From Chthonomonadales bacterium (GTDB lineage Bacteria; Armatimonadota; Chthonomonadetes; Chthonomonadales; Chthonomonadaceae): 45,871 bases of DNA. The translations under genes and the position numbers were made by a program. The notes under the pieces are model-generated. The model made no database searches. It was not told where the DNA came from and saw nothing but the letters and a program-made list of their open reading frames with translations. This document shows positions 143-29,929 of the stretch, piece by piece. How positions within the stretch are numbered: position 1 is the stretch's first letter; each line of letters opens with the position of its first letter. The stretch is from NCBI GenBank assembly GCA_038231675.1, contig JBBRKX010000001.1, forward strand, positions 1 to 45,871, given 5' to 3'.

Positions 143-355
143 GTGACACTTGACATGTTCGAGCTTCTATCTCGGCTGGCCGATGGATACACAGCTGCAA
201 GCCAGGAATTCGAACCGTTTCTAATTGATTTGGAAGAGTTCAAGGCGATGCTGCTTCGCAAGCCCGTAAAGGAAGCGCTCTTATTGGAAGGGCGATCACG
301 ATTGCATCGCGTCGCCTTGCGCGATGGGCGCGTGGAGATTGGTGCGGCATCATGA
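143..355 (+). CDS. Small hypothetical protein (about 66-70 aa), first gene of a 3-gene operon
   Basis: Its stop overlaps the ATG of the next ORF (ATGA at 352-355). Start is GTG 143 or ATG 155. No recognisable motif. Confidence 0.5.
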   Translation: MTLDMFELLSRLADGYTAASQEFEPFLIDLEEFKAMLLRKPVKEALLLEGRSRLHRVALRDGRVEIGAAS

Positions 356-1998
356 GCATAATCCTGCCCAAGCCTTCCAAGGGCATTAAGTTCGATTACG
401 TTTTCAGTATCGACATGAACGACTTCGATGTTGAAATGCTCCTGCCTGCGCTCTTCCATCTCATTCGGACAAAGGGTGCTCCGATAGGGAAGGCGAACGA
501 CCCGGAGCTTTTTAGCTCTTATCTGGACCGGCTGACGCAGCACGACCGCCTGCGTGGATTTTCCGATAAGAAGCATCTCCTAGAGCGCTGGCTCAGAACA
601 AGCGTCGTAAAAATGGGCTTCAAGGGCCGGGCTCATTCAAGCGAACAGATATCGTTTCTGTATCCAAGGACGATGCTGAGCTATAAGGCGGGCTGGCCGA
701 AGGATATCACTCGAATCAGAAGCGTCCACTATTTCGTCTATGCAGGATTACTCGCCAAAGTGACAGGCCCCGGCGACCTCGACACGCTGTTCAGGTCGGC
801 ATTCGGCAGCGGCCTTGTATTCGGCGACGGTCCGCAATTCGATGGACACTACGATGGCGAAACGGATATCGATCTCGAAGCCCTGCTGTCGATATGCTTC
901 ACTGACCAACTCACGCCCGCGGGGGTATCCGTCAAGACACTGGCAGTCAAGGCTGAGCCGCAACTGCCCGACCAGGCCAGCTATATGGCCGAGGATATTC
1001 TCAACCTGGTTGATTGCTACAGGGGCGAAATATCTACCGGCGTGCTGACGCGTTATCTCCTCACGATTCTGAATCTCCATCTGTTTGTCTACACACTGCG
1101 GCTCATGAACTGGTTGATCCGGCTGTCGGATTCGGACGTGGTTGCCAGTCAGCACGAGTGCTTTGTCGATTGCACCGGGATTCGGGGCTCGTACGGAAGC
1201 GAGATGGCGCGTGCCTGCGTCGACCGCGACCTTGAGGTGCTGGAGCGATATACGCGAACGGCATTGCGCTTGCGGACACTCAGTCGATTCGTGGAGTCCG
1301 CCCCTGATCTTCGGGCGGCAGCTCCTCCTAAGGAGAAACAACCCTCCGAGTACCTCAAACATTTGCTCGGTTTGGCGGACCACGTCAAAATCGCCGCGAG
1401 GGCCGAGAATGAGTTTGAATCCATCCTGCATGCCAACGGATTGGCAGATGAAGAATCGCTAGAGCAGGAATCGGATGTGGCGGCTCTTCTGCGTGCACTT
1501 CGAGACGAATACACAGGGTCCTCAATCGATCGCCTCGTTGAAGTACTGTACGCTTCGCAGCGTAAATCGGCCATAAGCAATGCGACCCGTTGGTACTACT
1601 CCGTAGCCGGTTTCAACCGCAGTTACGGACTGCTGACCGGCAACGCCACCGGCGGCCGCCGCGTCTCGCGCTACACAATGAGCAATGAACTTCTCACCGC
1701 GCTCGTTCACGTTGCGCTGGCTGACTTCGGACAGCCTGGCACCGGGAAAAAGGAGCCAGCAACTCGCTTGTCGCTCCGCACGTTCCTGCAATGGTTAAAG
1801 GATCGATTCGGTATTCTGATCAACGCGGCGCCATCATTTGACAGCTCGACCGAGGCGGTGCAATCCGCCTCCGTCAATTTCGAGGCGTTCAAGGCGAGAC
1901 TAAAGCAGATCGGCGTCTTTCAGGATCTGTCAGACGACTTCCAGGCGCAATACATTCGACGGACGCCAAGTTCGTCAGCTGCGGAAGTGGGCGCGTAA
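352..1998 (+). CDS. Hypothetical protein, 548 aa, no family recognised
   Basis: Long ORF, and the opposite-strand ORFs look like R/S/A-rich shadows. Its stop at 1996-1998 is directly followed by the ATG at 1999. The only P-loop-like string is a degenerate GQPGTGKK near the C-terminus. Confidence 0.8.
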   Translation: MSIILPKPSKGIKFDYVFSIDMNDFDVEMLLPALFHLIRTKGAPIGKANDPELFSSYLDRLTQHDRLRGFSDKKHLLERWLRTSVVKMGFKGRAHSSEQISFLYPRTMLSYKAGWPKDITRIRSVHYFVYAGLLAKVTGPGDLDTLFRSAFGSGLVFGDGPQFDGHYDGETDIDLEALLSICFTDQLTPAGVSVKTLAVKAEPQLPDQASYMAEDILNLVDCYRGEISTGVLTRYLLTILNLHLFVYTLRLMNWLIRLSDSDVVASQHECFVDCTGIRGSYGSEMARACVDRDLEVLERYTRTALRLRTLSRFVESAPDLRAAAPPKEKQPSEYLKHLLGLADHVKIAARAENEFESILHANGLADEESLEQESDVAALLRALRDEYTGSSIDRLVEVLYASQRKSAISNATRWYYSVAGFNRSYGLLTGNATGGRRVSRYTMSNELLTALVHVALADFGQPGTGKKEPATRLSLRTFLQWLKDRFGILINAAPSFDSSTEAVQSASVNFEAFKARLKQIGVFQDLSDDFQAQYIRRTPSSSAAEVGA

Positions 1999-4900
1999 AT
2001 GCCCACTGTTTTCCAAACGTTATTGCCGCCACTGGCTGAGGCCGTGGCGGCGGAGTTCGGTGGACGGGAGGACGGCCATTGTGTACGGGTCGATAATCTG
2101 AGCTACGAAGATTCTGTGGCGCTCTGCCAGTTGCTCCGCGAGTCGGGGCGAGAATCCTTTGTGAGTTTCGTATTGAATCCGGCTCCCGCACAGCCTTTCG
2201 AGCTGCGACCCGATCACGCGGTCGAGAAGCGCAATCCACCCAACCCGAGCTTCTGCCTGATTGTTCCGCGGGATTTCAGCGCAGAGGTTCCCAAGTCACT
2301 TGAAAACGCGTTTTCCGTGTTTGATTTGAGGAGCTTCCTGGCGAGTACAGAGGACCAATTGGTCGGATCGCTACCGGAGGAAATTCGGACAGTGATTCGC
2401 AGGCTCAAAGCCAGGCTCAAGGGGAGGGCGGCGGTTTCAGCTGAAGACCGAATTGCGTACTACCTCGATCTGAGGAAGAACCCGGTGCTGTCTGATGCCG
2501 GGCGTTCTCTGTGGCGCCTTGGATTGATCCCGGATTTCCGGGAGGACTTTCTGTCTCGGATTGAGCAGAATCGACGATCTGTCGATGCCATTTCCCGGCC
2601 CTCACGGCCGCAGAATTCCGCTGCCGAGCGGATCGCCGAGCTGGGTTTGCCGAGCGGCGATTTTAACCGGCGCCTCATCCGATTCTTGAGCTCGCGCGTC
2701 TTGCACGACACGGAGGCGTGGCAGCGTCCAATCGCCGAAGATCACGCGTTCGAAAACCTTTCCTTCGACCATTGGCCATTTCCAGAGCACCAGTTTTTTG
2801 ACCTGCAATCCATACAAGTGGAGCCGTTTGCCGACAGTCATGGCGCGGTGGCCTCATATTGCCACCTCGACCATTCGGCTGGCGTAGGCACGGCCTTAGT
2901 GGCCAATGTCGGTCCCAAGAAGAAGGTGGCACTTAGGTGGGTAAGTGATCCTATCAACCCCAGAGGCGTCACGCACTGGTGTGTAGAATTGATTCCTGCT
3001 CGGAGCCAGTATGGTGACACAGGCTCGACGCTACTCGTAGAAAAAGTCAAAGCAACTCTGAAGCAGACCAAGACGGCGCGGATCAAGCTCGACCTCGACT
3101 TGGAGGAAACAGAATACCGAGCTGTAGAACTTCGCGTGAGCGCACTTGGCAGTGACGGGCAGGCTGTGTGCGATGTTGCCGGCGAGGTCATCTCGGGGCA
3201 TTCCGACGAATTCTGGCTGAGCAAGGAAGAAGACGAGGAGGGCGTGGATCGGCTGCGCAAGCTGACTGACATTTCGCTGCCGCTCGCCAGGCTGCGGGCC
3301 TCTTACACTCTCCCGCACAATGAACCGGAGCTTCCGGAAAGCAACCCGCTCTGGCAAGAAGAAGATACTTCCTTCTCCATACAGTTACGACGGAAGATCC
3401 TCATGCGTTTGGCTACCAGCCAAGTGCTGTGCAAGATCCAAGATTATATTCTGGAGAACCCAAAATCAGGGTGGCTGTGGGCGGACATTGATTCGGAAAA
3501 ACGCCTCTCTCTCCCCGACATTCAGTGGGATGCCTTACCGGATTCCATGGTCGAACAGAAGCCCTGGGCGGATTTCCTCAAACAACGCGATCAGCTGTGC
3601 CGGGAGTTGCGTAGCCGCGAGGCTCGTCGCCGCGTCGAGAGCCTTGATTGGGATAACGTACTGACCGATCGGGTCCGCAAGTATGCTCGGTCCTACCGGG
3701 ATCTCCTTGAGAGCGCCATTTCCAGCTCTGATTCGGAAGCGTTGCGGTGGGTCCTTACGCTCGATGCGTTGCAAATCCGAATCCTTTACCCCGGAGGCGG
3801 CGACAGCACGGCCGCACTCATTTTGCCGCTGCATCCGTTGCGTCTGTTGTGGTACGGAGCTTACGCGGAACTGCTTGAACATTGGCGAACTGCCCTGGTA
3901 GGACTACCCAAATCTGAACGTCGCGATGCACTTGATTTCTCGATCGCTGAGCGACTCGTCCCGGCCCACATGCCGCTTTTCGTTCCCGGTCAAGGGGATC
4001 AAGTCCACGTATTCGCGCAAAATCTCGGCATTTTTCTCGGTGTCGCGTTTCCGGCGGATGTTCCAGAGCCGGGACGGTTACTGATGGAGATATCTGATCT
4101 TCTCGGCCTGCCGTCGGAGCTGGTCAGTTTCAGCGATTTCCCTCAGGAGAAATTGACTCGGAATCTCCTGGAATATCAGCACCTCCATGACTACGCCTCC
4201 AGTTTTCGGATCAGCGTGAGCAATGCCGGTGACGGGCTCCCTGTAACTGACGGGCTTCGAGAGATGTACGCCCGTCTGACTGATGAGTGGGAGAGCAGGG
4301 GAGGGATGCCCCGCCTGGATCTCATCGCCCATTATCGAAAACCATTGCCGCTGAACATGCCAGAGGCTGACAAATTAAGGACTTGGTTGGAGGCACAGAC
4401 CGCTGCCACCAGCGCTTCCCATTTGGCACCCACAATGCAGCTGGCCATTCGCAGCGAGGATCTGCTCAGCACGCCTCCTGGCGGGGACGTGAATCTCGCT
4501 GTCCTATTTGACGAAAGCCGTGCGACCGTCGCCCTCAAGCCGACAATTGAAGGCCAAGATAGTGCTTCTGGTTATGGGCTCATCACCCATCTCGTATCGC
4601 GATTCGATAGCCAGGCCGACGCTGCTTCCTGGATTCATCAGGCTGCTTTTCCTAGTGGTGCTGCTCATGAGAAGCATCCCGTCACATCTGGCTATACGGC
4701 AGACCTCGTCGATACGCAGCGCGCGATGCTTCAAGCTGAACAGCAGCGCATGAATTTGGCGCGAAGCGAGCCCGAAGTGCTCTCCTTGGTCGTTCAACTG
4801 GACGCAGAGCACCGGGACCGGCTGGACCGGGTCCATAAGTCGGCCGACTGGGTGTTGCTGCTTGATCGATACATCGGGGTCGATCTCTTCGACGATCCGC

Positions 4901-5817
4901 GAGATCCGTTTCTGTCGGAGTCCGCGAGAAAGTATCTATTGGACTACGCTCCTGAGTTCGTAGAGGGGCTAGGGCATAAGCTAATCGTAACGACCGCGTG
5001 GCGCGAGGAAATAGAAGAAGTACTTCGCACTGCCATGGCCGATCTTGGCTTTGAAGCCGTGGAAGAGAGCGTTGGCCAAGCCTTGCAGCACCTGAAGAGC
5101 ATCTCGGGCCGGTTGGCTCTGCGGCTCATTCACGACAATACTCGTGCAAAAGAGGTTGCGGGACTTGGAGCAGCCGTTGCATGGATGAAGGCTGCCGGTG
5201 ATCTGGCCGACAGCATTCTGATTCCGGTTGATTCGCACCCGGAGATATTTGCCTCGGAGCCGAGCGTGCCGGGATCAAAGGATACGCCAGATATCGCCGG
5301 CAGCATGGCGCGCTGCGATTTGGTGCAGGTCAGAGTTTATCCACGACGAATAGATGTCACCTTTATCGAAGTGAAACTCCGTCGAGGCACAGGTCCCAGC
5401 ATGGATTTGGCTGACCGGATGTGCGATCAGATGGATGCAACTGACAACCGGTTTCGGCGCCTGTTCTTTTCCGACCAGAAGCGGCTGGATCACGTCTTCC
5501 AGCGGTCAAAGCTGCACGCGTTGTTGCGGTTCTATGCCGGCCGCGCCGCTCGGTACGGTTTCTTTTCCGGTGACGGCAACCAAGTCGCTGAAAAGTACAT
5601 GGAAACCTTGCGTCTTTTGTCGCGGCTGGAAGGCGGTATTCCGACGATGCGCTCGGCGAGCCGAGGCTACATTGTCGATCTCGCCGGCAGCAGCCGGGAG
5701 CCGTTCACACATCGTGGTGCTGAGTTCCGGATTCTGACTGCCAGCGATTTTGAGCAGTCAACGTCGTTACGGACGGCGATTTCGGAGACTGCACGCCGAC
5801 AAGCGTCAACACCCTAG
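1999..5817 (+). CDS. Large hypothetical protein (1272 aa) with a C-terminal PD-(D/E)xK-like nuclease motif
   Basis: The C-terminal segment ARCDLVQVRVYPRRIDVTFIEVKLRRG fits D-x15-E-x-K. I found no Walker A or helicase motifs. Abuts the previous gene with zero spacing. Confidence 0.8.
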   Translation: MPTVFQTLLPPLAEAVAAEFGGREDGHCVRVDNLSYEDSVALCQLLRESGRESFVSFVLNPAPAQPFELRPDHAVEKRNPPNPSFCLIVPRDFSAEVPKSLENAFSVFDLRSFLASTEDQLVGSLPEEIRTVIRRLKARLKGRAAVSAEDRIAYYLDLRKNPVLSDAGRSLWRLGLIPDFREDFLSRIEQNRRSVDAISRPSRPQNSAAERIAELGLPSGDFNRRLIRFLSSRVLHDTEAWQRPIAEDHAFENLSFDHWPFPEHQFFDLQSIQVEPFADSHGAVASYCHLDHSAGVGTALVANVGPKKKVALRWVSDPINPRGVTHWCVELIPARSQYGDTGSTLLVEKVKATLKQTKTARIKLDLDLEETEYRAVELRVSALGSDGQAVCDVAGEVISGHSDEFWLSKEEDEEGVDRLRKLTDISLPLARLRASYTLPHNEPELPESNPLWQEEDTSFSIQLRRKILMRLATSQVLCKIQDYILENPKSGWLWADIDSEKRLSLPDIQWDALPDSMVEQKPWADFLKQRDQLCRELRSREARRRVESLDWDNVLTDRVRKYARSYRDLLESAISSSDSEALRWVLTLDALQIRILYPGGGDSTAALILPLHPLRLLWYGAYAELLEHWRTALVGLPKSERRDALDFSIAERLVPAHMPLFVPGQGDQVHVFAQNLGIFLGVAFPADVPEPGRLLMEISDLLGLPSELVSFSDFPQEKLTRNLLEYQHLHDYASSFRISVSNAGDGLPVTDGLREMYARLTDEWESRGGMPRLDLIAHYRKPLPLNMPEADKLRTWLEAQTAATSASHLAPTMQLAIRSEDLLSTPPGGDVNLAVLFDESRATVALKPTIEGQDSASGYGLITHLVSRFDSQADAASWIHQAAFPSGAAHEKHPVTSGYTADLVDTQRAMLQAEQQRMNLARSEPEVLSLVVQLDAEHRDRLDRVHKSADWVLLLDRYIGVDLFDDPRDPFLSESARKYLLDYAPEFVEGLGHKLIVTTAWREEIEEVLRTAMADLGFEAVEESVGQALQHLKSISGRLALRLIHDNTRAKEVAGLGAAVAWMKAAGDLADSILIPVDSHPEIFASEPSVPGSKDTPDIAGSMARCDLVQVRVYPRRIDVTFIEVKLRRGTGPSMDLADRMCDQMDATDNRFRRLFFSDQKRLDHVFQRSKLHALLRFYAGRAARYGFFSGDGNQVAEKYMETLRLLSRLEGGIPTMRSASRGYIVDLAGSSREPFTHRGAEFRILTASDFEQSTSLRTAISETARRQASTP

Positions 5818-5989
5818 CTTTTAGCCCACATAGCGCTCCAAGATTCCTAAAAGGCTGCAACCAAGAAATCTGCTATGCGTGTCAATAACTTGGCTGGAAA
5901 GGTCATTTCGATTGCTACGATTGATTGCGTTTGCTTCGATTGTGTGCTAAGGTGATCTTAGGAAAGCATAGAACAGAGAGGTAACAACA

Positions 5990-6442
5990 ATGGCTCAGGC
6001 AGCGATGGCACCAACCCTTCCTTCGGAGGCCGATGCGGTTTTGGCGAAAGAGACGAGCCGCGTGCTGGCATCTCACATTCGCAACAGCGATCCGATGGAA
6101 TTGAGAATTTCCGACGATCCTTCGCCGGACGGAATGGTCAAACTGCCTTTATCGGCGGCGCGGATGCTGGTCCGTATACTTGAGGAAATGGCGCGCGGCA
6201 ACGCGGTGACCCTGATTCCAGTTCACGCCGAGTTGACCACCCAGGAAGCGGCGGAGATGCTGAATATTTCGCGCCCATCCCTGATTCAGCTTCTGGATGA
6301 GGGGAAGATCGACTACCGCCGGGTCGGAACGCATCGGCGTGTCCGGTTTGAGGGTTTAATGAAGTACAAACGGGCCGCAGAGGCCGCCCGCCGGGCGGCG
6401 CTTGAGGAATTGGCCGCCTATGACCAGGAACTTGGAATTTAG
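5990..6442 (+). CDS. Excisionase/MerR-type HTH antitoxin-like protein
   Basis: LTTQEAAEMLNISRPSLIQLLDEGKIDYRRVGTHRRV is a helix-turn-helix_17-type segment. Sits 5 nt upstream of a PIN gene. Confidence 0.75.
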   Translation: MAQAAMAPTLPSEADAVLAKETSRVLASHIRNSDPMELRISDDPSPDGMVKLPLSAARMLVRILEEMARGNAVTLIPVHAELTTQEAAEMLNISRPSLIQLLDEGKIDYRRVGTHRRVRFEGLMKYKRAAEAARRAALEELAAYDQELGI

Positions 6443-6447
6443 ACATT

Positions 6448-7011
6448 GTGGCCCGGTTTACAGCATTCTACGACGCGAATGTGCTGTATCCGGCCGATCT
6501 GCGCAATCTGCTGATGCATCTGGCGCTGACGGGGCTGTTCCGCGCCACGTGGTCGGCAGGGGTCCACGAAGAATGGATGTCCGCATTGCTGCGCAACCGC
6601 CCCGACCTGTCGCGCGAAAAGCTGGAGCGGACGCGCATGCTCATGGACCAGCACGCAACCGACGCGCTGGTCACCGGCTATGAGGACTTGATTCCCGGCC
6701 TGCAGCTCCCTGATCCGAATGACCGGCACGTATTAGCGGCAGCGATCCGGGGGCGAGCCGATGTGATCGTCACAGCGAACCTGCGCGACTTTCCTGCGGA
6801 GACTCTCGCGGAGTTCGGGATTGATGCGCAGCACCCGGACGAATTCGTGCTGCACCTGCTGGATCTCGCCCCCGGCATCGTAGCGGAGGCTGCGCGGCAT
6901 CATCGCGAGAGCCTGAAGAATCCGCCGAAAACAGTTGACGAATATCTGAATACGCTTGAGGCGCTGGGACTGACGCAAACCGTGTCGGCGCTCCGTGAAT
7001 ACATGTTCTGA
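6448..7011 (+). CDS. PIN-domain toxin (VapC-like)
   Basis: Acidic PIN residues in FYDANVLY, DPNDRHVLAAAI and IVTANLRDF. GTG start. Paired with the upstream HTH gene. Confidence 0.75.
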   Translation: MARFTAFYDANVLYPADLRNLLMHLALTGLFRATWSAGVHEEWMSALLRNRPDLSREKLERTRMLMDQHATDALVTGYEDLIPGLQLPDPNDRHVLAAAIRGRADVIVTANLRDFPAETLAEFGIDAQHPDEFVLHLLDLAPGIVAEAARHHRESLKNPPKTVDEYLNTLEALGLTQTVSALREYMF

Positions 7012-7125
7012 TGATCTCCGCCAGGTTCATCCGGGATGCGCACGATGCTGGAGCAACTAGCAGTCAGCCCGAGAAGTGCGAAGATGGGCGCAGCGTTGCC
7101 TCGTGTAATACAACAAGGACTTTGA

Positions 7126-7953
7126 TTGAGTTATCAGGACGATCTGAAGAAACATCTCGCCGAGTTTAAGCGGCGAAACCTCGGCATTCGTACGCCCGGT
7201 GTGTTTCGGTACCGGGGCCGCGATGTGCAGCACCAACATATCCTCCCTCTCGCGAATAGCTCCGCGAACCTCCTGGAAGAGGCCGAACCGGCAGCGAGTG
7301 CCTTCCTGGCGGCGCACCCTCACAAGCGTCATCGGTACTTCCATCATTTGAATTCCTCGCAAGCATTTGCGTTCAATCTGTTCTTCCCTTACTTCTCAGG
7401 CGGACAGGAGTCGGCCTCCGCGCTCCTCCGGGCTCTTGGGCAGGGCGGAATCCTCGCCGAATGGGAGCCGGAGGCCGTACCAGTACCGGAAGAAGAGACC
7501 AACATTGACGTGTTGTGGGCCACCACAGATGGCATACGGACCTTCTGCGAGGTCAAACTTTCCGAAGCGGACTTTGGCAAGGCTCTCGATGACGACCGGC
7601 ATCGCGCCAAGCTTGTTGATATCTACAGCGAAATCCTTGCCGGGCATCTGGAGGCTGCGCGGCTTGAACGGCTGGCCTTTTTCGACGCTTACCAATTCAA
7701 TCGCAATGTCTGGCACATGGTTCGCACAGACCGTAGCCGATTGATCTTCCTGTTGCCCCGGTCGAATGCTGGTCTATGGAGCCTACTACAGCACTTGTTG
7801 TCCGGGGTGGCACCTGGCACGCGGGAACGCATTTCAGCTGTAGCCATCGAAGATGTCATCGCGAACCTTTCGGCCGACAACCAATGCCCCGAGAGATTGC
7901 GGGAATACGCACGAAAGCTGAAGCAGAAATATCTGATACAAAGCGCAACCTGA
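7126..7953 (+). CDS. PD-(D/E)xK-like nuclease-fold protein (275 aa)
   Basis: IDVLWATTDGIRTFCEVKLSEADFG gives D...E-V-K. The HHLNSSQAFAFNLFFPYF segment is typical of stand-alone restriction-endonuclease-like families. TTG start with AAGGA 7 nt upstream. Confidence 0.6.
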   Translation: MSYQDDLKKHLAEFKRRNLGIRTPGVFRYRGRDVQHQHILPLANSSANLLEEAEPAASAFLAAHPHKRHRYFHHLNSSQAFAFNLFFPYFSGGQESASALLRALGQGGILAEWEPEAVPVPEEETNIDVLWATTDGIRTFCEVKLSEADFGKALDDDRHRAKLVDIYSEILAGHLEAARLERLAFFDAYQFNRNVWHMVRTDRSRLIFLLPRSNAGLWSLLQHLLSGVAPGTRERISAVAIEDVIANLSADNQCPERLREYARKLKQKYLIQSAT

Positions 7954-8172
7954 CAAGGCGTGGAACCGCCGAGGGTCTCGACAACGAGGCGAGGGGTGGG
8001 AGGCGCCTTGAGGCTTGTCAAATTGTTGCCGGGCGATCCGGTTCCCGCCGCTTCGCCAACGGCGTATCCTCTTTGAACATCATCGTTGCACGACCGGGGA
8101 GGGGAGGGATGCTGTTCCAAACCGACGAGAGGGGTGGCGCGCTTCGTGCTATTCTGACGGTCTCCATAGCCC

Positions 8173-9369
8173 ATGAACGACGAAATCGCCGCGCAACTCG
8201 GAAGCTCTGCCGCGCCGCTGAAGCGCATCCGCGACAAGCGCAATGCTGAAGAGGTCCGCAAGATAGTCGCCGGAGATGAACCTCCGCACCTTCGATTGCG
8301 CGCTGCCTTAGCGAGCGGCGTGAAACCGCCGGATGATCTCCTTGAACCGGCAATCATCAGCCACGCGTTGCGTCTGGACGACTGCTTCAAGTTTATCCCG
8401 CAGCTTTCCACTGTGACGCGCGTCGTTGAAGCCGGTTCAGCGCTAGAGGCGATCCGCAACCTGCTTCGACAACGTGGGATCGGGAACCCGAACGTCCAGC
8501 TCGCACGATTCCTCAAGCTCTCAAAGCAATGGGAAGGGAGCAAGAACCCGACATCTCCGAGCGAAAAGACAGTAACCCAGTATCTGAGCCTGGTCGAAAT
8601 CATTGTGGACCAGCCAATCGGGACAACGAAGCGGCCATCAAAGAAGCCGCAAGCAAGCCCGTTGCCCCATGTACTGGCCGTCGTTTGTCGATGGGCCATA
8701 AAATGTCCGAGCGTGGACAATCTCGCTCTCGCTCTTCGATGTTTGACAGCCGCCGAACGACGCCAAGGGATCGCGGGCGCCGAACGCCACGGCGATGTTC
8801 CCGGACTCGCGGCGGTAGTCTCTTCGCTGCGATCGCTCGCACTCACGCGTGTTGAATCAGCCGCGCGACGATCAGAGATTGACGATTTTCGACGCCTGCT
8901 ACAGGCCTTAACAGGCTCCGTTGCCCAAAAAACGGAAATGGATCAGATAATCGAGCGTCTCTACCATTACCAGCCACGCTTCGACGATGCGATTTTGAAG
9001 GTCTTGTCGGAATTCGCGGATGTTGAGACTTCACCTTCGATCACCATTCGATACGCTGCCGGCGGTGAGCCGAAGGCAGGAATTATGCAACTCGCTAGCG
9101 TGTTGCTCAAAGCCTGGGCGGCCCGTAACGACGGACAAAGTTCCAAAGAAACATATGAGCAACTGGCGTGGGTACTCGAACAGTTCTTTTCCTTGCGCCT
9201 GCGGGATTGGGTAGGTGAGAGACAAGAGTACGATCCACGATTTCATGAGTTCGAGTCGGGCGAGGCCCCGACCTCAAAAGTCGAAGTCACTCGTCCAGCG
9301 GTAGAGGGGCTCGATCCCGCCGAAACGGGAATGGTCATCAAGGCACTTGTAAAGGGGGTTGCAACCTGA
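8173..9369 (+). CDS. Hypothetical protein (398 aa) with a GrpE-like C-terminal segment
   Basis: The C-terminus VGERQEYDPRFHEFESGE...VEVTRPAVEG...GMVIKALVKGV resembles the GrpE beta-domain pattern G..FDP..H.A ... RPA.V.V. Its TGA is immediately followed by the ATG of the Hsp70-like gene. Confidence 0.6.
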   Translation: MNDEIAAQLGSSAAPLKRIRDKRNAEEVRKIVAGDEPPHLRLRAALASGVKPPDDLLEPAIISHALRLDDCFKFIPQLSTVTRVVEAGSALEAIRNLLRQRGIGNPNVQLARFLKLSKQWEGSKNPTSPSEKTVTQYLSLVEIIVDQPIGTTKRPSKKPQASPLPHVLAVVCRWAIKCPSVDNLALALRCLTAAERRQGIAGAERHGDVPGLAAVVSSLRSLALTRVESAARRSEIDDFRRLLQALTGSVAQKTEMDQIIERLYHYQPRFDDAILKVLSEFADVETSPSITIRYAAGGEPKAGIMQLASVLLKAWAARNDGQSSKETYEQLAWVLEQFFSLRLRDWVGERQEYDPRFHEFESGEAPTSKVEVTRPAVEGLDPAETGMVIKALVKGVAT

Positions 9370-10719
9370 ATGTCCGGACAATTTCAAGTTGGAATCGATT
9401 GGGGAACGCACTCGTCGAAAATCTGCGTCGTCGATCCGAAAGGGGACTACCTAGCCGGTCCACTCCTGAGTTCGGCCTTGCTTCACCACGGAGACGATCT
9501 GGTCTTCGCACCGAAGGGAAAGGCCAACGAAGACGAACTCGTGCGGAGTCTCAAGAGCGATTTGATTCAGCACAGCCTCAGTGTTCCATTCTGGAGTAAG
9601 GATGATCGACCTGATAGCGGAACCTCACTCGGCGAAGCGGTGGCGTTTTCTTTGATTTGTTTACTCAGCGAAAGCAAACGCTGGCTCTCCAAAGATTATG
9701 GCGAGACGGACTTCGGGCAGGTCGAGATCGGATTTGCCCTACCAAACTGGCTGGCTGAGGAAACCCGCAAGGCGACTATAGCGGCAGGGCACTTCTGTGA
9801 AGCCGTTGGAGTCGCCGTACATATTGTCACTACCAAAACCGCCGCTGAACTGCCCGCGCCCGGCAAACTTTTTCCCATTCCAAAATTGAAGGAGTGGGTA
9901 ACAGCGGCGCTCGCCGCGACGCAGGGCCATCAAGGCAAACAACCGACTATCGAAGGAGTCAACAAGACGGTGTTCAGCTTGACGACAGCCGGTCCCAGAT
10001 GGAGATTTATAGTGGAATCCGGCGCGGCAGGTCTTCCTTACCTGCGCGCGATGAGACTCAACAATCGCCCCGGCGTCTCGGGCCTGGCGAAACTCCTTAT
10101 AGTAGATGTCGGGGCTGGCTCTACTGACGTGGGCTACATGTTGAAAACGAGCAATGTGACCACCGGCGCTCCGACCTTGTATTATTTCCATCCCGCGTCG
10201 ACATTTGCCGAAGCCGGAAACGCGCTGACAGAAGAACTTGTCAAGCATCACAGGGCGCAAAACAAGCCAATTACCTGGGCGGAAGCAGAGGCAGAGAAAA
10301 TCGCGAACACAAATTGGCACAAGCTCCCTTTCGCCCAGCTTTGGATACGGCATATCTGCGAGCACGTAGCGCAGTACATCCTCGGGGTTCCAGACGAAAG
10401 ATGGTTACCGCAGCCGGTAAAGCTGCATTTGGTCGTTACCGGCGGCTCGGGACTCGTGCCGGGCCTGAAAAAGCAAATGCATGATGCGGTCATCGACGCA
10501 CTTGCCACCCGCCGGTTTAATGTCCGGACGGATGAGAAGCTGCCCGTGGACGCCGTGGACAAGTACAAGCCCACTTTCAATCTGGAAACTGAAGCCGAAG
10601 TCGCCCGGAGAGCGGTTTCTTTCGGTGCCGCCGATCCCGACAAACCGGGGTTTCGCTACATGGTGAAGATGGACGCTCCGGCCGGGCCGATGAAGATGGG
10701 AGGCCGCCGCTGGGTGTAG
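9370..10719 (+). CDS. Hsp70/actin-fold (ASKHA) ATPase, nucleotide-binding domain only
   Basis: Phosphate-1 VGIDWGTHSSKICVV, phosphate-2 LLIVDVGAGSTDVGY, adenosine motif LVVTGGSGLVPGL. At 449 aa it has no substrate-binding domain. Confidence 0.8.
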   Translation: MSGQFQVGIDWGTHSSKICVVDPKGDYLAGPLLSSALLHHGDDLVFAPKGKANEDELVRSLKSDLIQHSLSVPFWSKDDRPDSGTSLGEAVAFSLICLLSESKRWLSKDYGETDFGQVEIGFALPNWLAEETRKATIAAGHFCEAVGVAVHIVTTKTAAELPAPGKLFPIPKLKEWVTAALAATQGHQGKQPTIEGVNKTVFSLTTAGPRWRFIVESGAAGLPYLRAMRLNNRPGVSGLAKLLIVDVGAGSTDVGYMLKTSNVTTGAPTLYYFHPASTFAEAGNALTEELVKHHRAQNKPITWAEAEAEKIANTNWHKLPFAQLWIRHICEHVAQYILGVPDERWLPQPVKLHLVVTGGSGLVPGLKKQMHDAVIDALATRRFNVRTDEKLPVDAVDKYKPTFNLETEAEVARRAVSFGAADPDKPGFRYMVKMDAPAGPMKMGGRRWV

Positions 10720-10754
10720 CCCGGTGAAGGATACAGGCTAAGCCGAACGTGGCT

Positions 10755-10780
10755 GAAAGGGGCAGAAAACCGCCCTTTTC
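10755..10780. terminator. Hairpin between convergent genes (possible bidirectional terminator)
   Basis: GAAAGGGGC-agaaaacc-GCCCTTTTC, a 9-bp stem with one G-U pair, lying between the stop at 10719 (+) and the stop at 10808 (-). Confidence 0.35.
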
Positions 10781-10807
10781 CCGATGTGATAACGTATCTT
10801 ACGGAAA

Positions 10808-11671
10808 TTACCTGATGTTTTTCGGGGAAGGGGCCTCCACCTGCAGCCCGACCCCACCATTCCTTGCGAATCCGCGACCGCATCCCTGCCCGCCAGCCCT
10901 CGTCAGATACCTAGCAGGTTTTCGTTGTCTTGCAGGAATTTTATGACTGTTCCAATGCTGTATCCCGATACGACTCTGTCTGTGGTTGCATTCAGTGGCG
11001 AGAATGCCGCACAGGCGCGGTAGCGGTGACCAGAACGGCTCCGCCGGGACATGCCAGACGCCGCTGCCGCTGTAGCCGTTGGCCCGGTGGGGCAGTTCGT
11101 AAGGAACGGTGAAATCCTGCTGCGGCTCATGCCGGCATGCCGAGCCAACCGCATCGAGCGGTCCAAAAAAGTGCTCCGGCGACGCCATGTAATTCTTCCC
11201 GAGCGGAATTTTGGCAGCGCCGGGATAGCCGAAGACACCGACCTGCGTGCCATCCATTGGCATCGTCGCCCCTGGATCGAGTGCCGCGAAGCACTCCTCG
11301 GCGCTTGGCTGGGGCGGCAGGATGATCGCCGCGAGATCAACCGGATCATCGGCGAACACCGGCGGCATCGGCTGACGCAGCTCAAGCAGTCCGCGCAGTT
11401 CGAGGGAGAGCGTTGGCCGGGGTTCCTGCGGCGCGAACTGGATCTCCCGCGCCGGCAAAAAGAACCGCAGCGTGTCCTCTGGGCAATAGTCGATGACATG
11501 CCCGGCCGTCAGGATCAGGTATTGCCCTTTCCATTTCACGCCCACACCGGTCGCGATTTCCTAGTTCTCAACAAGGCGCTGCGACGGCTGGACCAGGGCA
11601 AACGTATGCCGGGACATCGCGCTTGCGACGACGCGATGGACCTGCAACGATTCTTCCGGAATCACCAACAT
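10808..11671 (-). pseudogene. Trypsin-like (S1/Trypsin_2-type) serine protease interrupted by an in-frame TAG at 11561-11563
   Basis: Catalytic triad contexts LTAGHV (His), DLAAIIL (Asp) and GYSGSGVW (Ser). The ORF from GTG 11545 puts His at about residue 15, too close to the N-terminus for the fold. The same frame continues upstream across a single TAG (..TFALVQPSQRLVEN*EIATGVGVKWKGQYLILTAGHV) to ATG 11671. Confidence 0.7.
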
Positions 11672-11740
11672 GGAGCGCCCTTCTCGATTATCCCATCGAG
11701 CGGAGTTTGTTCCCGCGCTATCCGGTGCGAAAATGAGTCC

Positions 11741-12421
11741 ATGGATCGCTGTGCGCTCCCCCACGGGGCGAGGGGCATCGAGGGCGACGGCTTTGCCGTC
11801 GAGTTCCGGGACGACAAGATCGTCTTCGTGCCGAAATCCACCGGCGACGGCAAACACTACACGCTCCACACCGGGCCCGGCTCGGGAGTGATGGACGTGC
11901 ATGAAACGACCTCTGATGCCGAGGGCCGCGAACAGCACCGCACGCTGTTCGCCCTGCGAAAGGACGACCTCTTGCCGGTATTACAGGAGCTGTCGCTGAT
12001 GGTGCCGGAGCTGTTTGGCCTGCCGCGCCCCCTGCGGCTGGGGTGGCTCAAGCACCGCAACATCGCCGTCGCCCGCGGCATCGACCCGGTCTGCGATGCC
12101 GATATCGCCGCCGTTACCCGCAAGCGCAAACGCCGCCTGACGCTCGACGCCGAACTTTACCAGCGGAACATCTTCGCTCCCGAGTACCTGGAGGAGGTTT
12201 ACGATTTCTCCGACGGCAACTTCACGCTGATTCACCACGGGCGCAACATCGGCATGGGATTCAAGCAGACGGATGCCGCAGGCAACGCTCGCCTGTACTG
12301 GATCAAGCGCCGGGACCTCTCAAGGTTCGGCAATGACTGGCAGCAGAAAGTAATTGGTGCGCTGCAGCGGCTTGCCATTCCGCACGAGCGCTACACGGAA
12401 TACCGTTTCCTCCGCCCGTGA
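11741..12421 (+). CDS. Hypothetical protein (about 226 aa), upstream of the SIR2-HEPN pair
   Basis: Third-position G/C is strongly enriched in this frame from about 11750 onward. The first part of track ORF 11051..12421 is antisense to the protease. The ATG at 11741 is a guess; ATG 11891 is an alternative. Confidence 0.55.
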   Translation: MDRCALPHGARGIEGDGFAVEFRDDKIVFVPKSTGDGKHYTLHTGPGSGVMDVHETTSDAEGREQHRTLFALRKDDLLPVLQELSLMVPELFGLPRPLRLGWLKHRNIAVARGIDPVCDADIAAVTRKRKRRLTLDAELYQRNIFAPEYLEEVYDFSDGNFTLIHHGRNIGMGFKQTDAAGNARLYWIKRRDLSRFGNDWQQKVIGALQRLAIPHERYTEYRFLRP

Positions 12422-12486
12422 GCTGCGCAGACCGCTGCACCGGTATATCATTGCTGCCGCCACCGGCCGCCGGTCATCATGTAATC

Positions 12487-13527
12487 ATGACTGCGTACAT
12501 TCTGGGAGCCGGGGCGTCGGCCCACGCGGGCTATCCTTTGGCGTCCAGTCTCCTGCAGGCCCTCTCCGACTGGCTCGATTGCGCCAGCGAGGCGGAACAC
12601 TGGGTCGGTCCGTGCCGCAACCGCATCCTCCAGGTGCGCGAGACGTTCGGTTCGCTCGAAGATTTCGAGGGCATACTCGGCAAGCTCGAAGCATACGGGT
12701 ACAGGCGGGTCAGGCCAGCGGGGCCGGTGACCTACCGTCAGGACCCAAAGGACATTTTCCACGACTGCACGGAGCAGCTCCGCGGCGTTGATGTCGGGAC
12801 TCCCGACGCACCGGCCGAAGGATTTTATCCGCAATATCTGCGCAGCGATCTGATCATGGCGTTGCGCGAGTTCTTCGACCAGGCCGAACTGAACCGCACC
12901 GGGCCGACCGCCTACGACAGCTTCGCCGCCCGGAAGGTCGATGTCGATTCCCTCCTCATCACGCTGAACTACGATGTCGCCTTGGAGCGTGCGCTCGCAA
13001 AAGCCGGAAAGTGGGATATCGGTACAGGCTACGGCTTCACCGCGTTTGCCGGGAAGGACCCCTCCCCGACCGCCCTTTACAAGCTGCATGGCAGCGTGAA
13101 CTGGTTTCAGGCGCCGATGCAGGACAACCCGCCGCCGCTGATGTTCTCACGCGACCTGAAACTGCTCGGCTACGAGGATCTGGCCGACCCGAGAGTTGGC
13201 ACGAACGGCGTTGGTATCAACAACGCCGGCACCTTGATTCTGCCCGACCCGGAAAAGCGGTTTTTCTGGGAGCCCTTCTGGTCGCCGCTGTGGAATGCGG
13301 CAGCTGAGCGCCTCCCCGCGGCGCGCGAAGTCTTCATCCACGGATACAGCATGCCCCCTTCCGACCTTAAGGCCCGCGAATTGTTGTTTGGCAACATCAA
13401 TCCGGAGGCAACCATAAATATGCACTGCCGAAGCACCAGCGGCCGCATCGCCGATGAGTTCCGCAGTCGGGGCTTTGCCAGGGTGCAGGCCTTTCCGGAG
13501 ATCGGATTCGAGGCGTGGGCGGCATGA
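12487..13527 (+). CDS. SIR2-like (SIR2_2 family) protein
   Basis: MTAYILGAGASAHAGYPL, LITLNYDVALERAL and LYKLHGSVNWF match the GAG.S..G.P / NYD / HGS signatures of defence-type SIR2 domains. Confidence 0.75.
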   Translation: MTAYILGAGASAHAGYPLASSLLQALSDWLDCASEAEHWVGPCRNRILQVRETFGSLEDFEGILGKLEAYGYRRVRPAGPVTYRQDPKDIFHDCTEQLRGVDVGTPDAPAEGFYPQYLRSDLIMALREFFDQAELNRTGPTAYDSFAARKVDVDSLLITLNYDVALERALAKAGKWDIGTGYGFTAFAGKDPSPTALYKLHGSVNWFQAPMQDNPPPLMFSRDLKLLGYEDLADPRVGTNGVGINNAGTLILPDPEKRFFWEPFWSPLWNAAAERLPAAREVFIHGYSMPPSDLKARELLFGNINPEATINMHCRSTSGRIADEFRSRGFARVQAFPEIGFEAWAA

Positions 13528-16454: not shown

Positions 16455-17612
16455 TTAAGCGCTAAGAACGGCTTTTTCGAGCTGTTCTGCCGCTTCGGCG
16501 CGCCTGGACAGGGCGGCCTTGGTATAAACATCAATCGCCACGCCGATACCGTGGCCGCGCTGATCGGCTGCCACTTTCGGATCAATCCCGGCGTCATGGC
16601 CGAGACTCGCGTGGGTTCTGCGCAAAACCTGAAACGTCGCCCATGCAAGCCCAAGCGGTTGCAGCTTCGGCTCCATATGCCGGTACCAAACGTTATCGCG
16701 CCACATGGGCTTCAGAGGGTTCTCCGAAGCGAATACCCAAGCGTGCAGTGGGGTAGGGGCCATCTCCATCCATTCACGCAACCGGTTGGCCGTCTGCGTT
16801 GGAATGGCGACGGTCCTGTTGGAGGAAGTCGTCTTAGGCGTATCGATGTCGCCGCGATACACGCGCTGATCGATATTGACCTTGCGGCAATCACCGCTGA
16901 CATGGCGGCGCTGCAGAGCGAGAATCTCGCCGGGACGCATCCCGGCAAAAAGCGCGAGATGCGCAATGAGCGACTCGCGTGGTTCCACTGCGTTGATGTA
17001 GTGTTCGACCTCCTCCTTGTTCATGACGGGCCGAGCGGATGTCTCCGCCTGCTTGGGCGTAAAGAGCGCCGCCGTCGGATCGCGCTCGACGTAGCCCTCC
17101 GCCATGGCAAGCTTGAAGAGTGCCCGCAGGTCCCATCGCAGATGCGCCACGACGCTGCGGGAGAGCGACGACGCCTTGCCGTTCAGGAACGATTGCAGCT
17201 CCTTAAGGCCAAGCGACGCAAGCTTTCTTTCGCCAAACTCCAGGCCCAGATGATGCGTGATACGGTTTTCCGTGGTCGCGGCTGTTGACCGCTTCCATTT
17301 AGACCGAAGAAACGGGAGCGCAACGCCGTTAATAAACGCTTCCATAGTGATGTCGCGATCGGGTGCCGCTGCGTTGCGGGCAATCACCTCGCTTAGCAGC
17401 TCGTCGCGCTTCTGCTCGGCCTGGCTCTTGCTCATCTTGGAGTAGAGTCCCAGCGTTGCGTATTTGCGAGTACTGCCATCGCGGTAGAGAAGAACCCACA
17501 TCTTGCGCTCCCCGTGCTTCCTTACTTGCAAACTGCCTTTCTGATGCCGCTGTCGATGCACGTTTGTCCTTTCCGTGCGCCCAGGCGGTGAATCCAGGTG
17601 TGATCGGATCAT
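16455..17612 (-). CDS. int: Tyrosine recombinase / phage-type integrase
   Basis: LFAGMRPGEILAL (Arg), LRRTHASLG (His-x-x-Arg region) and HGIGVAIDVYTK (Tyr). Immediately adjacent to the tRNA. ATGA overlap with the upstream xis-like ORF. Confidence 0.9.
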   Translation of the reverse strand: MIRSHLDSPPGRTERTNVHRQRHQKGSLQVRKHGERKMWVLLYRDGSTRKYATLGLYSKMSKSQAEQKRDELLSEVIARNAAAPDRDITMEAFINGVALPFLRSKWKRSTAATTENRITHHLGLEFGERKLASLGLKELQSFLNGKASSLSRSVVAHLRWDLRALFKLAMAEGYVERDPTAALFTPKQAETSARPVMNKEEVEHYINAVEPRESLIAHLALFAGMRPGEILALQRRHVSGDCRKVNIDQRVYRGDIDTPKTTSSNRTVAIPTQTANRLREWMEMAPTPLHAWVFASENPLKPMWRDNVWYRHMEPKLQPLGLAWATFQVLRRTHASLGHDAGIDPKVAADQRGHGIGVAIDVYTKAALSRRAEAAEQLEKAVLSA

Positions 17613-17860
17613 AGCATCGAATCCGGGTGCTTCTCGCTGGTCTTAAGCCACGCGTTAAAGCTTGCGCGAAGCACAAGCCTGCGTCGGCCAAGCCACAGGG
17701 AGGGCAGGGGCCGCACTCCCGGTACGGTGCCAATGATCAGGTGATGGACATGGGCTTTCGAGCAGCGCAACTCCGCCGCGACTTCGTTCACGGTAAGAAT
17801 GCCGTGACCAGAGACAATGACGCCGGTATCGCTTTCGGAAGGCAACGCGGTTTCGGACAT
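17609..17860 (-). CDS. xis: Excisionase/AlpA-type HTH protein (83 aa)
   Basis: MSETALP...LTVNEVAAELRCSKAHVHHLI...LGRRRLVLRASFNAWL. This uses the internal ATG of track ORF 17609..18160. 4-nt overlap with the int start. Confidence 0.65.
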   Translation of the reverse strand: MSETALPSESDTGVIVSGHGILTVNEVAAELRCSKAHVHHLIIGTVPGVRPLPSLWLGRRRLVLRASFNAWLKTSEKHPDSML

Positions 17861-17871
17861 AAAGAGTCGCT

Positions 17872-18063
17872 TCAACTCCCCGTGGGAGCGAACAGGTCGG
17901 CCTGTCGTGAAGCGTCGGCTATGCGCCTGCACGGCAGCGCAAAGTAATCCGGGCGTTTTTCGATGCCGATAAATCGGCGGCCGAGTTTCATGCAGGCGAC
18001 CCCGGTGGTTTTCATCGGGATGGACACTCGGCGCGCCGCCTGCTCGCTGATTAGTGACGACAC
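17872..18063 (-). pseudogene. C-terminal remnant of an N4/N6 DNA methyltransferase
   Basis: ..[33 protein letters not shown] matches the conserved C-terminal motif (GSGTTG..A..LGR.fIGiE....Y) of ParB-methylase-type enzymes. The catalytic N-terminal part is absent. Confidence 0.55.
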
Positions 18064-18248
18064 CGTTCTGCTCCTGTAGCCATATGCGGTCTAAGGGGCC
18101 GTTTTGGACGGGCGCGAGCGCGGAAAACATTAATGTCCGGAAATGTGTGAGTATGCGCATAAGCCTAGATGGCGCGCTGCAAGATTCTGTTTACTGTTTT
18201 CGATGCGCGTCCATTTCGGCGCATGCAGCTGAGCGGCAGTTCGGTCGC

Positions 18249-18673: not shown

Positions 18674-19129
18674 TTATGCAGAGGCTTTGCTAGGTGGAGC
18701 TGCTGCCACAACGGTAATGGATTCGATGAACGGCTCGTGTCCGGCAGGCGGGTCATAGTGCTTCTTGTGGAACTCGCAGATGCTGCCGCAATTGCTAAAG
18801 CTGATGGCGTGGACAACCGGCGCAAGGTTCCGGCCTATAACTTCCACCACCATGAAGGAATAGACCAGTGTGAACGCCCCCTGGTGATCGTGGTCAAAAA
18901 TGATATCGAGCAAATGGTGATAGTTCGGGTATCGTGACGGCTGTGTCGCACAGTGAATATGCATCCGTTCGGCACGGTCCCTGTTGTCGAAGGCAACATA
19001 CGTCCGATCGGGCCGGACCAGAGGTAACACGTTATCCTCAGGCGTCCGACGTGGCGGCTCCGGCTGCTGCTCCTGCCTGCCGCTCCAGAGCTTCCCCATT
19101 CCCCCGCCCGTGTTCGTCTCCTTGCTCAT
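18674..19129 (-). CDS. Hypothetical protein (151 aa) downstream of the relaxase
   Basis: Its start overlaps the relaxase stop by 4 nt (19126-19129). No family recognised. Confidence 0.55.
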   Translation of the reverse strand: MSKETNTGGGMGKLWSGRQEQQPEPPRRTPEDNVLPLVRPDRTYVAFDNRDRAERMHIHCATQPSRYPNYHHLLDIIFDHDHQGAFTLVYSFMVVEVIGRNLAPVVHAISFSNCGSICEFHKKHYDPPAGHEPFIESITVVAAAPPSKASA

Positions 19130-20181: not shown

Positions 20182-20261
20182 GCTCACAACTCCGCTGATG
20201 CTGGAAGGGGTCGCAGGGGTAACGCCCCCGGCGTGGTGCAGGGCGCGAAAGCCCTGCCGCG

Positions 20262-20369
20262 CATCCAACCGGCGCACGGTTGGGCAGGAGTCAAGGGGGA
20301 AGGGGTCGCTTCCCCCTGGCGTGCTTGAACGGCGAAACGTTCACGGCATCCAACCGGCGTACGGTTGGG
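20262..20369. repeat. Two copies (85-bp period) of CATCCAACCGGCG(C/T)ACGGTTGGG, each an internal palindrome
   Basis: Copies at 20262-20284 and 20347-20369. Each contains CCAACCG-gcgya-CGGTTGG and is followed by a G-rich hairpin. A further hairpin, CAGGGC-gcgaaa-GCCCTG, is at 20239-20256. Confidence 0.7.
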
Positions 20370-29678: not shown

Positions 29679-29929
29679 GCACGAGTCTCCCGTGTTTTTA
29701 ACGCTTGCTTCGGTATGGCGCGGTTCATCCGCGTTTGAGCGCTGTTGCGCGATCAGATACACCTCCCGGTAGAAAAGTCATCAACATTCTTAACTCGGCA
29801 GTAGCAATAGAGTTAAATGCCTCAGACCCGGCACGCGGGCACGTCCACTACGGAAACGCTTTCCTCAAAGCGAGTTAATAAATTGTGAGCATAGAACTTC
29901 GCGACGCCTATTGAAGCATCCTTGACTCC

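Follow-up and report, generated by a model that had tools for sequence, protein, structure and literature searches.

The window analysed here, a stretch of 45,871 nucleotides of contig JBBRKX010000001.1 from a Chthonomonadales bacterium (assembly GCA_038231675.1), carries two abutting genes on its forward strand, which are referred to as A and B in the following. Gene A (8173..9369, + strand) codes for 398 amino acids, of which the first ~345 form an all-helical, poorly conserved domain and residues 346-398 (encoded by 9208..9366 on the + strand) a conserved beta-domain at the C-terminus. Gene B (9370..10719, + strand) codes for a predicted ATPase of the ASKHA (Hsp70/actin) superfamily of 449 amino acids, which consists of the nucleotide-binding domain (NBD) only and has its catalytic residues intact. 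The stop codon of A (TGA, 9367-9369) directly abuts the start codon of B, giving the junction TGA-ATG. The two open reading frames (ORFs) had been proposed with exactly these lengths and boundaries in an earlier reading of the DNA (the original prediction), and both are genuine genes. In an indexed search, at least 144 homologs of B were recovered, down to ~30% identity, and the family of A comprised 175 cluster representatives among 1.84 billion clustered proteins.

The conservation of B was assessed in a family alignment of 70 homologs with 30-88% identity. The three sequence signatures on which the original prediction had based the assignment of B to the ASKHA/Hsp70 fold, DWGTHSS, DVGAGSTD and TGGSGLVPG, all fall on invariant or nearly invariant columns of this alignment (D10, W11, G12, T13, S15 and K17; D246, G248, A249, G250, S251, T252 and D253; T357, G358, G359 and S360) and conform to the phosphate-1 (DxGT), phosphate-2 (DxGxGxxD) and adenosine (GG) signatures of the superfamily. 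K62 and E216 are invariant as well. When the B profile was aligned to DnaK using hhalign, E216, D246, S251 and D253 were placed on E171, D194, T199 and D201 of DnaK, respectively, and we infer that K62 is the equivalent of DnaK K70. A model of B was produced with AlphaFold (AF2) (predicted local distance difference test, pLDDT, 89.5; predicted template modelling score, pTM, 0.90) and used for a Foldseek search against the PDB. The top 50 matches were all members of the Hsp70 family (DnaK, BiP/GRP78, Hsp110/Sse1 and Ssz1), with E values of 7e-11 to 4e-9 and template modelling (TM) scores of 0.33-0.62. The protein ends at 449 amino acids, where the final NBD helix is followed by no more than a short tail, and has no linker, peptide-binding domain or lid, as the original prediction had concluded from its length.

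At the level of sequence families, the picture is different. No family was assigned to B in scans of Pfam, NCBIfam and PHROGs. The Pfam HSP70 model (PF00012) did not match B of the window and matched one of the 70 family members, at an E value of 0.45. The Pfam matches that the family did show, all below gathering cut-offs, were to actin (40 of 70 members, best E value 7e-5), MreB (23) and FtsA (12), and searches of PDB sequences with phmmer and with profiles returned weak matches to actin, Arp4, MamK and MreB only. Among four E. coli references, the hhalign probability of the B profile was highest for YegD (91%, P 1e-6), followed by FtsA (61%), MreB (50%) and DnaK (38%). Since the motifs, the model and the mapping of the catalytic residues to DnaK agree, B is, as far as sequence and predicted structure can tell, a catalytically intact ATPase of the Hsp70/actin fold that lacks a substrate-binding domain; it is Hsp70-like by fold, yet stands outside the HSP70 sequence family. 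In the tail that follows the last NBD helix (residues ~421-449), a GAADxDKPG motif and a terminal W-V are conserved. This tail recalls the C-terminal peptide motifs by which proteins dock onto co-chaperones made of helical repeats, and the body of A is itself helical-repeat-like.

The AF2 model of A (pLDDT 80) shows helices up to residue 345 and four strands at positions 350-395. The body of the protein (residues 1-345) is modelled as about 20 shorter helices in a solenoid-like arrangement. Foldseek searches of PDB structures and viral models with A gave weak helical-repeat matches only, no family was assigned in Pfam, NCBIfam or PHROGs, and phmmer and profile searches against PDB sequences returned nothing but noise. 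The two parts of the protein are very unequally conserved, with an information content of 0.9-1.4 bits per column in the N-terminal 300 residues compared to 1.9-2.0 bits in the last 100. In the helical body, L78 is the only residue that is conserved in at least 90% of 110 sequences, and an enzymatic role of this domain is therefore unlikely. The C-terminus is the best conserved part of the family (H358 93%, R374 93%, P375 100%, V377 90%), and its motifs, derived from 117 sequences, read G-x-V-G-x(3-4)-[FY]-[DN]-P-R-x-H-E, V-x-I-V-R-P-x-V-E and V-[VL]-I-[KR]-A-L-V. The string GERQEYDPRFHEF...VTRPAVEG...VIKALVKG, to which the original prediction had drawn attention as resembling the beta-domain of GrpE, lies within this part.

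In order to assess the distribution of the pair, we compiled about 22 distinct loci, comprising 15 loci from species genomes, further loci from metagenomic contigs and one contig from IMG/VR. The 15 loci were the yield of a scan of 185,579 species genomes and were all located in metagenome-assembled genomes of Acidobacteriota (Bryobacterales, Terriglobia and Pyrinomonadaceae). At all 20 informative loci, that is, where upstream DNA was present and not rearranged, A is located directly upstream of B. In the 14 intact pairs, the gap between the two genes ranges from -4 to +39 nucleotides, and the pairwise identities of A and B are correlated (r = 0.94), with A diverging faster (mean identity 29% vs 42% for B). 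No third gene was conserved across the pair-bearing loci. A and B are thus an obligate, co-diverging and translationally coupled pair, and the dedicated partner that had been proposed for the ATPase, as well as the co-conservation of the two genes, is borne out. At least six of the approximately 22 loci carry frameshifted, truncated or fragmentary copies (L001, L002, L006/L007, L014, L015 and L024). The IMG/VR contig is viral and carries the A-B pair, and a tblastn search with B against plasmid and phage collections gave no match. The loci L006 and L007 lie ~132 kb apart on the same Terriglobia contig and have identical gene lists, including an interrupted A and a truncated B; the identity runs from ~7300 to the end of the part analysed (~17,100 of 20,864 bases). 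This decayed cassette seems to be part of a large duplication or of a repeated element.

Two related contigs, L031 and L071, allow the pair of the window to be delimited as an exchangeable unit. They match the window at positions 6217-8082 (96-98% identity) and from 10901 onward (90-91%), and between the two match blocks the 2.8-kb segment with the pair gives way to 1120 bp that encode, on the opposite strand, a DUF5677 protein. Since these near-identical backbones carry an unrelated 1.1-kb segment in the place of A-B, we regard the segment 8083..10900 (+ strand) as an exchangeable cassette at a hot spot, located between the nuclease gene upstream and the trypsin-like gene downstream. The exchange site corresponds to L031 1868..2987 and its counterpart in L071 and holds either the 286-aa DUF5677 protein or the A-B pair; another contig, L032, diverges from the window right after the upstream nuclease gene (window position 7960), which suggests a third variant. 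The cassette-specific 5' leader of A (8083..8172, + strand), presumed to contain the promoter and the 5' untranslated region, starts at the left homology breakpoint (8082/8083), and a scan of this leader for the sigma-70 consensus found no promoter. An imperfect 22-nt direct repeat (7978..7999 and 8116..8137, 77% identity, 138 nt apart), the second copy of which is located in the leader, spans the breakpoint and may be the trace of a recombination event or a chance occurrence. Between the convergent stops of B (10719) and of the following gene (10808) lies a 9-bp hairpin ending in a U-run (10755..10780, no strand assigned). The region 10720-10807 folds with -27.9 kcal/mol (z = -2.1), the hairpin was not called by a consensus terminator scan, and it may be a terminator, as a weakly supported candidate.

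The neighbours listed in the original prediction are present in the window, the SIR2-HEPN module by its SIR2 gene. Upstream of the pair lie an HTH_17 + PIN_3 gene pair (5990..7011, Pfam) and a PD-(D/E)xK restriction endonuclease (REase) gene (7126..7953, + strand; Pfam REase-ARP, E 7e-34) that ends 219 nt before A; downstream follow a convergent trypsin-like gene (10808..11545, - strand; weak Pfam match, E 2e-4) and a SIR2_2 gene (12418..13527, Pfam). In a comparison of the trypsin-like ORF with a related contig, 32 of 43 substitutions fall on third codon positions of its minus-strand frame, from which we conclude that the gene is coding. A 456-aa ORF on the + strand (11051..12421) was considered as a full neighbouring gene and rejected, as over its 5' part it mirrors the trypsin-like gene on the opposite strand. 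The trypsin-like gene being the real one of the two, the true start of the gene upstream of SIR2 must lie beyond 11545, with ATG candidates at 11606, 11636 and 11741. The beginning of the window holds two large genes that resemble the methylation-associated defence system MADS, the rest of which would be located upstream of the window: a MAD7-like ORF (352..1998; NCBIfam MAD7, E 1.7e-113, 380 bits compared to a cut-off of 410) and an ORF (1999..5817) whose N-terminus matches MAD8 (E 8.5e-18) and which also has weak SspH/DndH-like matches. Further downstream, the window contains two integrases, the first a tyrosine integrase at 16455..17612 and the second at 29975..30958. Between them are encoded an HTH_17 excisionase-like protein (17609..18160), a MobA/MobL relaxase (19126..20277), a TraG-like coupling protein (23163..24725) and an RHS-repeat toxin (25437..27869) with a DUF6531 protein (27912..29762). 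The pair of the window belongs to the cargo of an integrative mobilisable element.

The neighbours of the pair at the other loci are similar in kind. They include MNT-HEPN and XRE genes; conjugation (type IV secretion system, T4SS) genes together with a CHAT protease; an integrase, a PIN protein, Mrr_cat and a caspase/GAP1/DO-GTPase system; ArdC, ParB, PLD, DndB and Mrr plus methyltransferase genes; and a TIR protein, a transposase, a kinase, a helicase and a PLD protein. Further loci carry integrases, and a C5 methylase is also found among the neighbours. At locus L023, an Mrr_cat nuclease is encoded just downstream of the pair. The homolog contexts thus consist mostly of integrases, conjugation, toxin-antitoxin and defence genes, which agrees with the defence-island setting that had been proposed; some loci are flanked by housekeeping genes. 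At locus L025, a gene for a Ser/Thr protein kinase (9428..11131) directly follows the pair. In E. coli (L098), the gene for the NBD-only Hsp70 protein, yegD, adjoins the kinase gene yegI, and these two arrangements may be a coincidence or point to a recurring link between Hsp70-like proteins and kinases.

Comparison with known systems revealed that the pair is not wholly new. Judged by sequence matches, both proteins are distant relatives of PDC-M61, a computationally predicted phage-defence candidate of PADLOC whose A and B components form the cassette CAS_00187 (FAM_02378>>FAM_01640; Payne et al. 2024, bioRxiv 10.1101/2024.01.29.577857). PDC-M61 is one of 145 candidates that were defined by their embedding in BREX, DISARM or type I restriction-modification (RM) loci (bioRxiv 10.1101/2024.01.29.577857). 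In a PADLOC analysis, the pair matched no defence models other than those of PDC-M61, and 59 of 70 B-family members matched PDC-M61B and no other model. The matches to PDC-M61B (E 2.1e-4 for B of the window and 1.5e-6 for the best member) cover residues 242-305 only, and those to PDC-M61A (E 3.4e-4 for A of the window, 3e-7 for the family consensus, 24 of 110 members matching) cover only the last ~55 residues. The two families have in common a two-gene cassette with A followed by B, and both have been tied to defence by genomic context alone. They differ in the length of the proteins, with PDC-M61 models of ~485 aa for A and 588 aa for B, and in their setting: PDC-M61 is embedded in BREX, DISARM or type I RM loci and was reported in Pseudomonas, whereas the present family is acidobacterial and located in element cargo regions. 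The cassette of the window is not inside such a locus either, as it lies downstream of the MADS-like genes, between the REase and the trypsin-like gene, and the other loci are similar in this respect. Because the matches are short and weak, we regard A-B as more probably a distant sister family of PDC-M61 than a member of it.

Hsp70-like components are also found in other predicted conflict systems. CnuD of the CoCoNuT systems combines an Hsp70-like NBD and substrate-binding domain (SBD) with HEAT-like repeats (PMC11090510), and the GAP1-N2 GTPase systems include HSP70, GrpE and SBD-less HSP70 (PMC7159879). The A-B pair resembles these systems in that an Hsp70-fold ATPase occurs with helical-repeat or GrpE-type partners in predicted immunity loci, and one locus of the pair is located ~3 kb from a GAP1-N1/DO-GTPase/caspase system. 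Unlike the A-B pair, which stands alone, these systems have a recognisable HSP70 and come with GTPases, McrBC-type modules or explicit effectors. Searches of the literature found no experimental work and no validated system built on such a pair, in line with what the original prediction had stated.

The observations on the loci show that, in integrative or conjugative elements and defence islands of soil Acidobacteriota, the cassette comes and goes, is exchanged for other DNA and decays to pseudogenes. The original prediction had held that the pair does not look like a housekeeping chaperone, and the rare, patchy, often pseudogenised and swappable occurrence in mostly mobile-element or defence contexts bears this out. 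We propose, with a probability of roughly one half, that A-B is a self-contained accessory conflict cassette directed against phages or other mobile elements and a distant sister of the predicted PDC-M61. According to this proposal, A and B would form a complex, in which the conserved C-terminal domain of A would dock on B and set its nucleotide state in the manner of a co-factor or exchange factor. The variable helical solenoid of A would provide the specificity by binding a protein of the invader or the host, and ATP turnover by B would convert recognition into an output. This division of A into a conserved C-terminus and a variable body suggests a sensor/switch design. No nuclease, NADase, protease or membrane domain was found in A or B, which makes a built-in toxin unlikely, and the output would most likely be a direct ATP-driven action, i.e. 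the binding, remodelling or sequestration of a target protein, or the recruitment of a host factor, e.g. the DnaK system.

Several points weigh against this proposal. The missing effector domain leaves the output step a matter of pure inference, and both the A-B family and PDC-M61 are known from computation alone. The resemblance to PDC-M61 is itself weak and local, being limited to ~65 residues of B and ~55 residues of A. At several loci, the pair is flanked by housekeeping genes (GlnA and a sulfatase, FtsH, a tRNA synthetase, PhoU and UvrC), the tRNA synthetase being of the Asp/Asn/Lys-type class II (Pfam tRNA-synt_2), and the statement that the neighbours are mostly mobile-element and defence genes is a locus-by-locus description. 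Finally, all members of the family in the genome set belong to Acidobacteriota, which leaves room for a lineage-specific housekeeping role.

A special case of the conflict-cassette proposal takes up the original prediction that the C-terminus of A is GrpE-like: the domain would be a true homolog of the GrpE beta-domain and act as the nucleotide-exchange factor (NEF) of B by prising open its nucleotide cleft. The resemblance in sequence is found throughout the family. The motif G-x-V-G-x(3-4)-[FY]-[DN]-P-x-x-H-E after a long helix resembles the G..FDP..H[QE]A of GrpE, the last strand of A (V-V-I-K-A-L-V) resembles RVLRPA.V.V of GrpE, and the predicted order and lengths of the strands in A are compatible with GrpE. 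Two alignments of the C-terminal A profile with a GrpE profile by hhalign gave P values of 0.0023 and 0.0012 with a sub-threshold probability of 12-20%, and placed the terminal helix and the G..FDP..H motif of the two proteins in register. The GrpE profile used consisted of three sequences (E. coli, Geobacillus and human), as broadening the search yielded only GrpE of Enterobacteriaceae and Geobacillus. All three single GrpE sequences also aligned at the motif of A. Their scores, at about the 90th percentile of a set of comparison ORFs, do not stand out; this set was drawn from the fetched loci, true A-family homologs among them, and is thus a poor null. In addition, the closest structures to B are Hsp70 NBDs, the client of GrpE, and the domain is the portion that A and PDC-M61A have in common, as expected for an element that contacts the ATPase.

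The other searches did not bear out the homology. The Pfam GrpE model (PF01025) matched neither A of the window (E<=0.1) nor the A-family consensus and is absent from the 25 most-hit Pfam families listed for the 110 A-family members; two PDB profile searches with A returned no GrpE chain at E<=10; and GrpE was not among the top 50 Foldseek matches of A. When the full-length A profile was aligned to E. coli GrpE, another region was picked (probability 0.2%), and the conserved R-P of A sits in a different strand from the R-P-A of GrpE. The GrpE architecture, with its long dimerising helix or coiled coil and its four-helix bundle, is missing from the model of A. Seen next to DnaK/GrpE as a whole, the pair shares the Hsp70-NBD fold with the equivalents of E171, D194, T199 and D201 of DnaK, a partner encoded by the adjacent gene, and, in the C-terminus of A, a helix followed by a small beta-domain with an FDPxxH-like motif. 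It differs in that B has neither linker nor substrate-binding domain and fails the Pfam HSP70 model, A is a protein of 398 aa with a helical-solenoid body and is not recognised by the Pfam GrpE model, a linked J-domain protein is missing, and the pair is accessory and mobile rather than housekeeping. The relationship of A to GrpE is therefore a live hypothesis, not an established one, and we consider the exchange-factor role tentative and somewhat doubtful.

A still more specific version would combine these elements in an effector-less immune or interference module, in which the NBD-only ATPase works with a private, GrpE-derived exchange factor fused to a fast-evolving helical sensor and neutralises invaders by capturing or remodelling a phage or plasmid protein at the expense of ATP, or by hijacking host DnaK, without killing the cell. 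We regard this version as rather unlikely in its full form. If true, it would represent a mechanistic class not yet demonstrated in defence and provide a function for NBD-only DnaK derivatives.

Alternatively, the cassette may serve the mobile element that carries it, either as an actin-like device for segregation or maintenance or as a toxin-antitoxin-like addiction pair in which one protein keeps a harmful activity of the other in check. The location of many copies on integrative, conjugative or mobilisable elements near integrases, T4SS genes, ParB and ArdC fits this explanation, as do the weak Pfam matches of B to actin, MreB, FtsA and PilM instead of HSP70, and frequent pseudogenes would be expected of a costly selfish module. 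However, the top structural matches of B are Hsp70 NBDs and not ParM or MreB. In the type II partition system ParMRC, the partner is a small DNA-binding adaptor (ParR), whereas A is a helical protein of 398 aa encoded upstream of the ATPase. No iterons or centromere-like repeats flank the pair, with only the imperfect two-copy 22-nt repeat mentioned above being found. Moreover, several copies are located at chromosomal sites with no visible element, and the pair contains no known toxin fold. Taken together, we judge service to the element to be unlikely.

Another explanation would give B a specialised role in proteostasis: as an NBD-only derivative of DnaK, it would cooperate with the DnaK system of the host, e.g. 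in the manner of an Hsp110-like exchange factor, and A would adapt it to a particular client. NBD-only derivatives of DnaK, of which YegD is one, are common among complex bacteria and the function of the class is an open question, with possible Hsp110-like NEF roles proposed in a 2026 review (PMC13580251). YegD is the best match of B among the four E. coli ASKHA proteins compared, and the two proteins consist of the NBD only and are almost identical in length (449 aa for B vs 450 aa for YegD); Hsp110/Sse1 is among the top structural matches of B, and the housekeeping genes that flank some loci would also fit. On the other hand, the alignment with YegD spans no more than ~66 columns, located around the phosphate-2 region, YegD, unlike B, is assigned to the HSP70 family, and the gene upstream of yegD in the MG1655 region is alkA, with no A-like gene there. 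The rarity of the family, its patchy distribution with presence or absence between near-identical backbones, the frequent pseudogenisation, the fast evolution of the partner and the mostly mobile-element or defence neighbours all argue against a proteostasis role, which we consider improbable.

The original prediction had also named the REase encoded at 7126..7953 (Pfam REase-ARP/PDDEXK_13) as a possible linked effector, and this suggestion is refuted by its distribution. Relatives of the REase with 39-98% identity were found at 66 metagenomic loci, none of which carries A or B and which have no conserved neighbour in common; conversely, the REase is present at none of the other pair-bearing loci, and L030, L031 and L071 keep the REase without the pair. 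It behaves as a solitary, mobile nuclease gene in highly variable neighbourhoods. We considered whether 'ARP' stands for actin-related protein, a reading that would link the REase to B, and rejected this, as the term was not found in papers of the Aravind laboratory and the co-occurrence data exclude such a link. The name probably derives from the ARG/rhodanese-phosphatase systems that Iyer et al. (2022) described. In these ARG-centric anti-ADP-ribosylation systems, an ADP-ribosylglycohydrolase (ARG) core occurs with a rhodanese-phosphatase, a Nudix/WYL regulator and, optionally, an REase. A scan of the genes at 352..13527 detected none of the ARG, rhodanese-phosphatase, Nudix and WYL domains, and the relatives of the REase are solitary. 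A three-gene system with the REase as effector under the control of A-B, for which the shared strand, the distance of 219 nt and the Mrr_cat nuclease downstream of the pair at L023 could be cited, is thus extremely improbable.

NBD-only relatives of Hsp70 are common in complex bacteria and their roles are obscure. Hsp70-like parts recur in predicted immunity loci, namely in CoCoNuT, in GTPase-centred systems and in PDC-M61, all of which are still predictions. The A-B pair offers a minimal two-gene version with a presence/absence polymorphism, intact catalytic residues and a conserved putative docking domain on a variable body. Should it act in defence or interference, the ATPase cycle of a chaperone would have been turned to the recognition of invaders without a classical toxin, and the PDC-M61 superfamily would be validated. 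If the link to GrpE is true, it would mean that an exchange-factor domain has been reused outside proteostasis.

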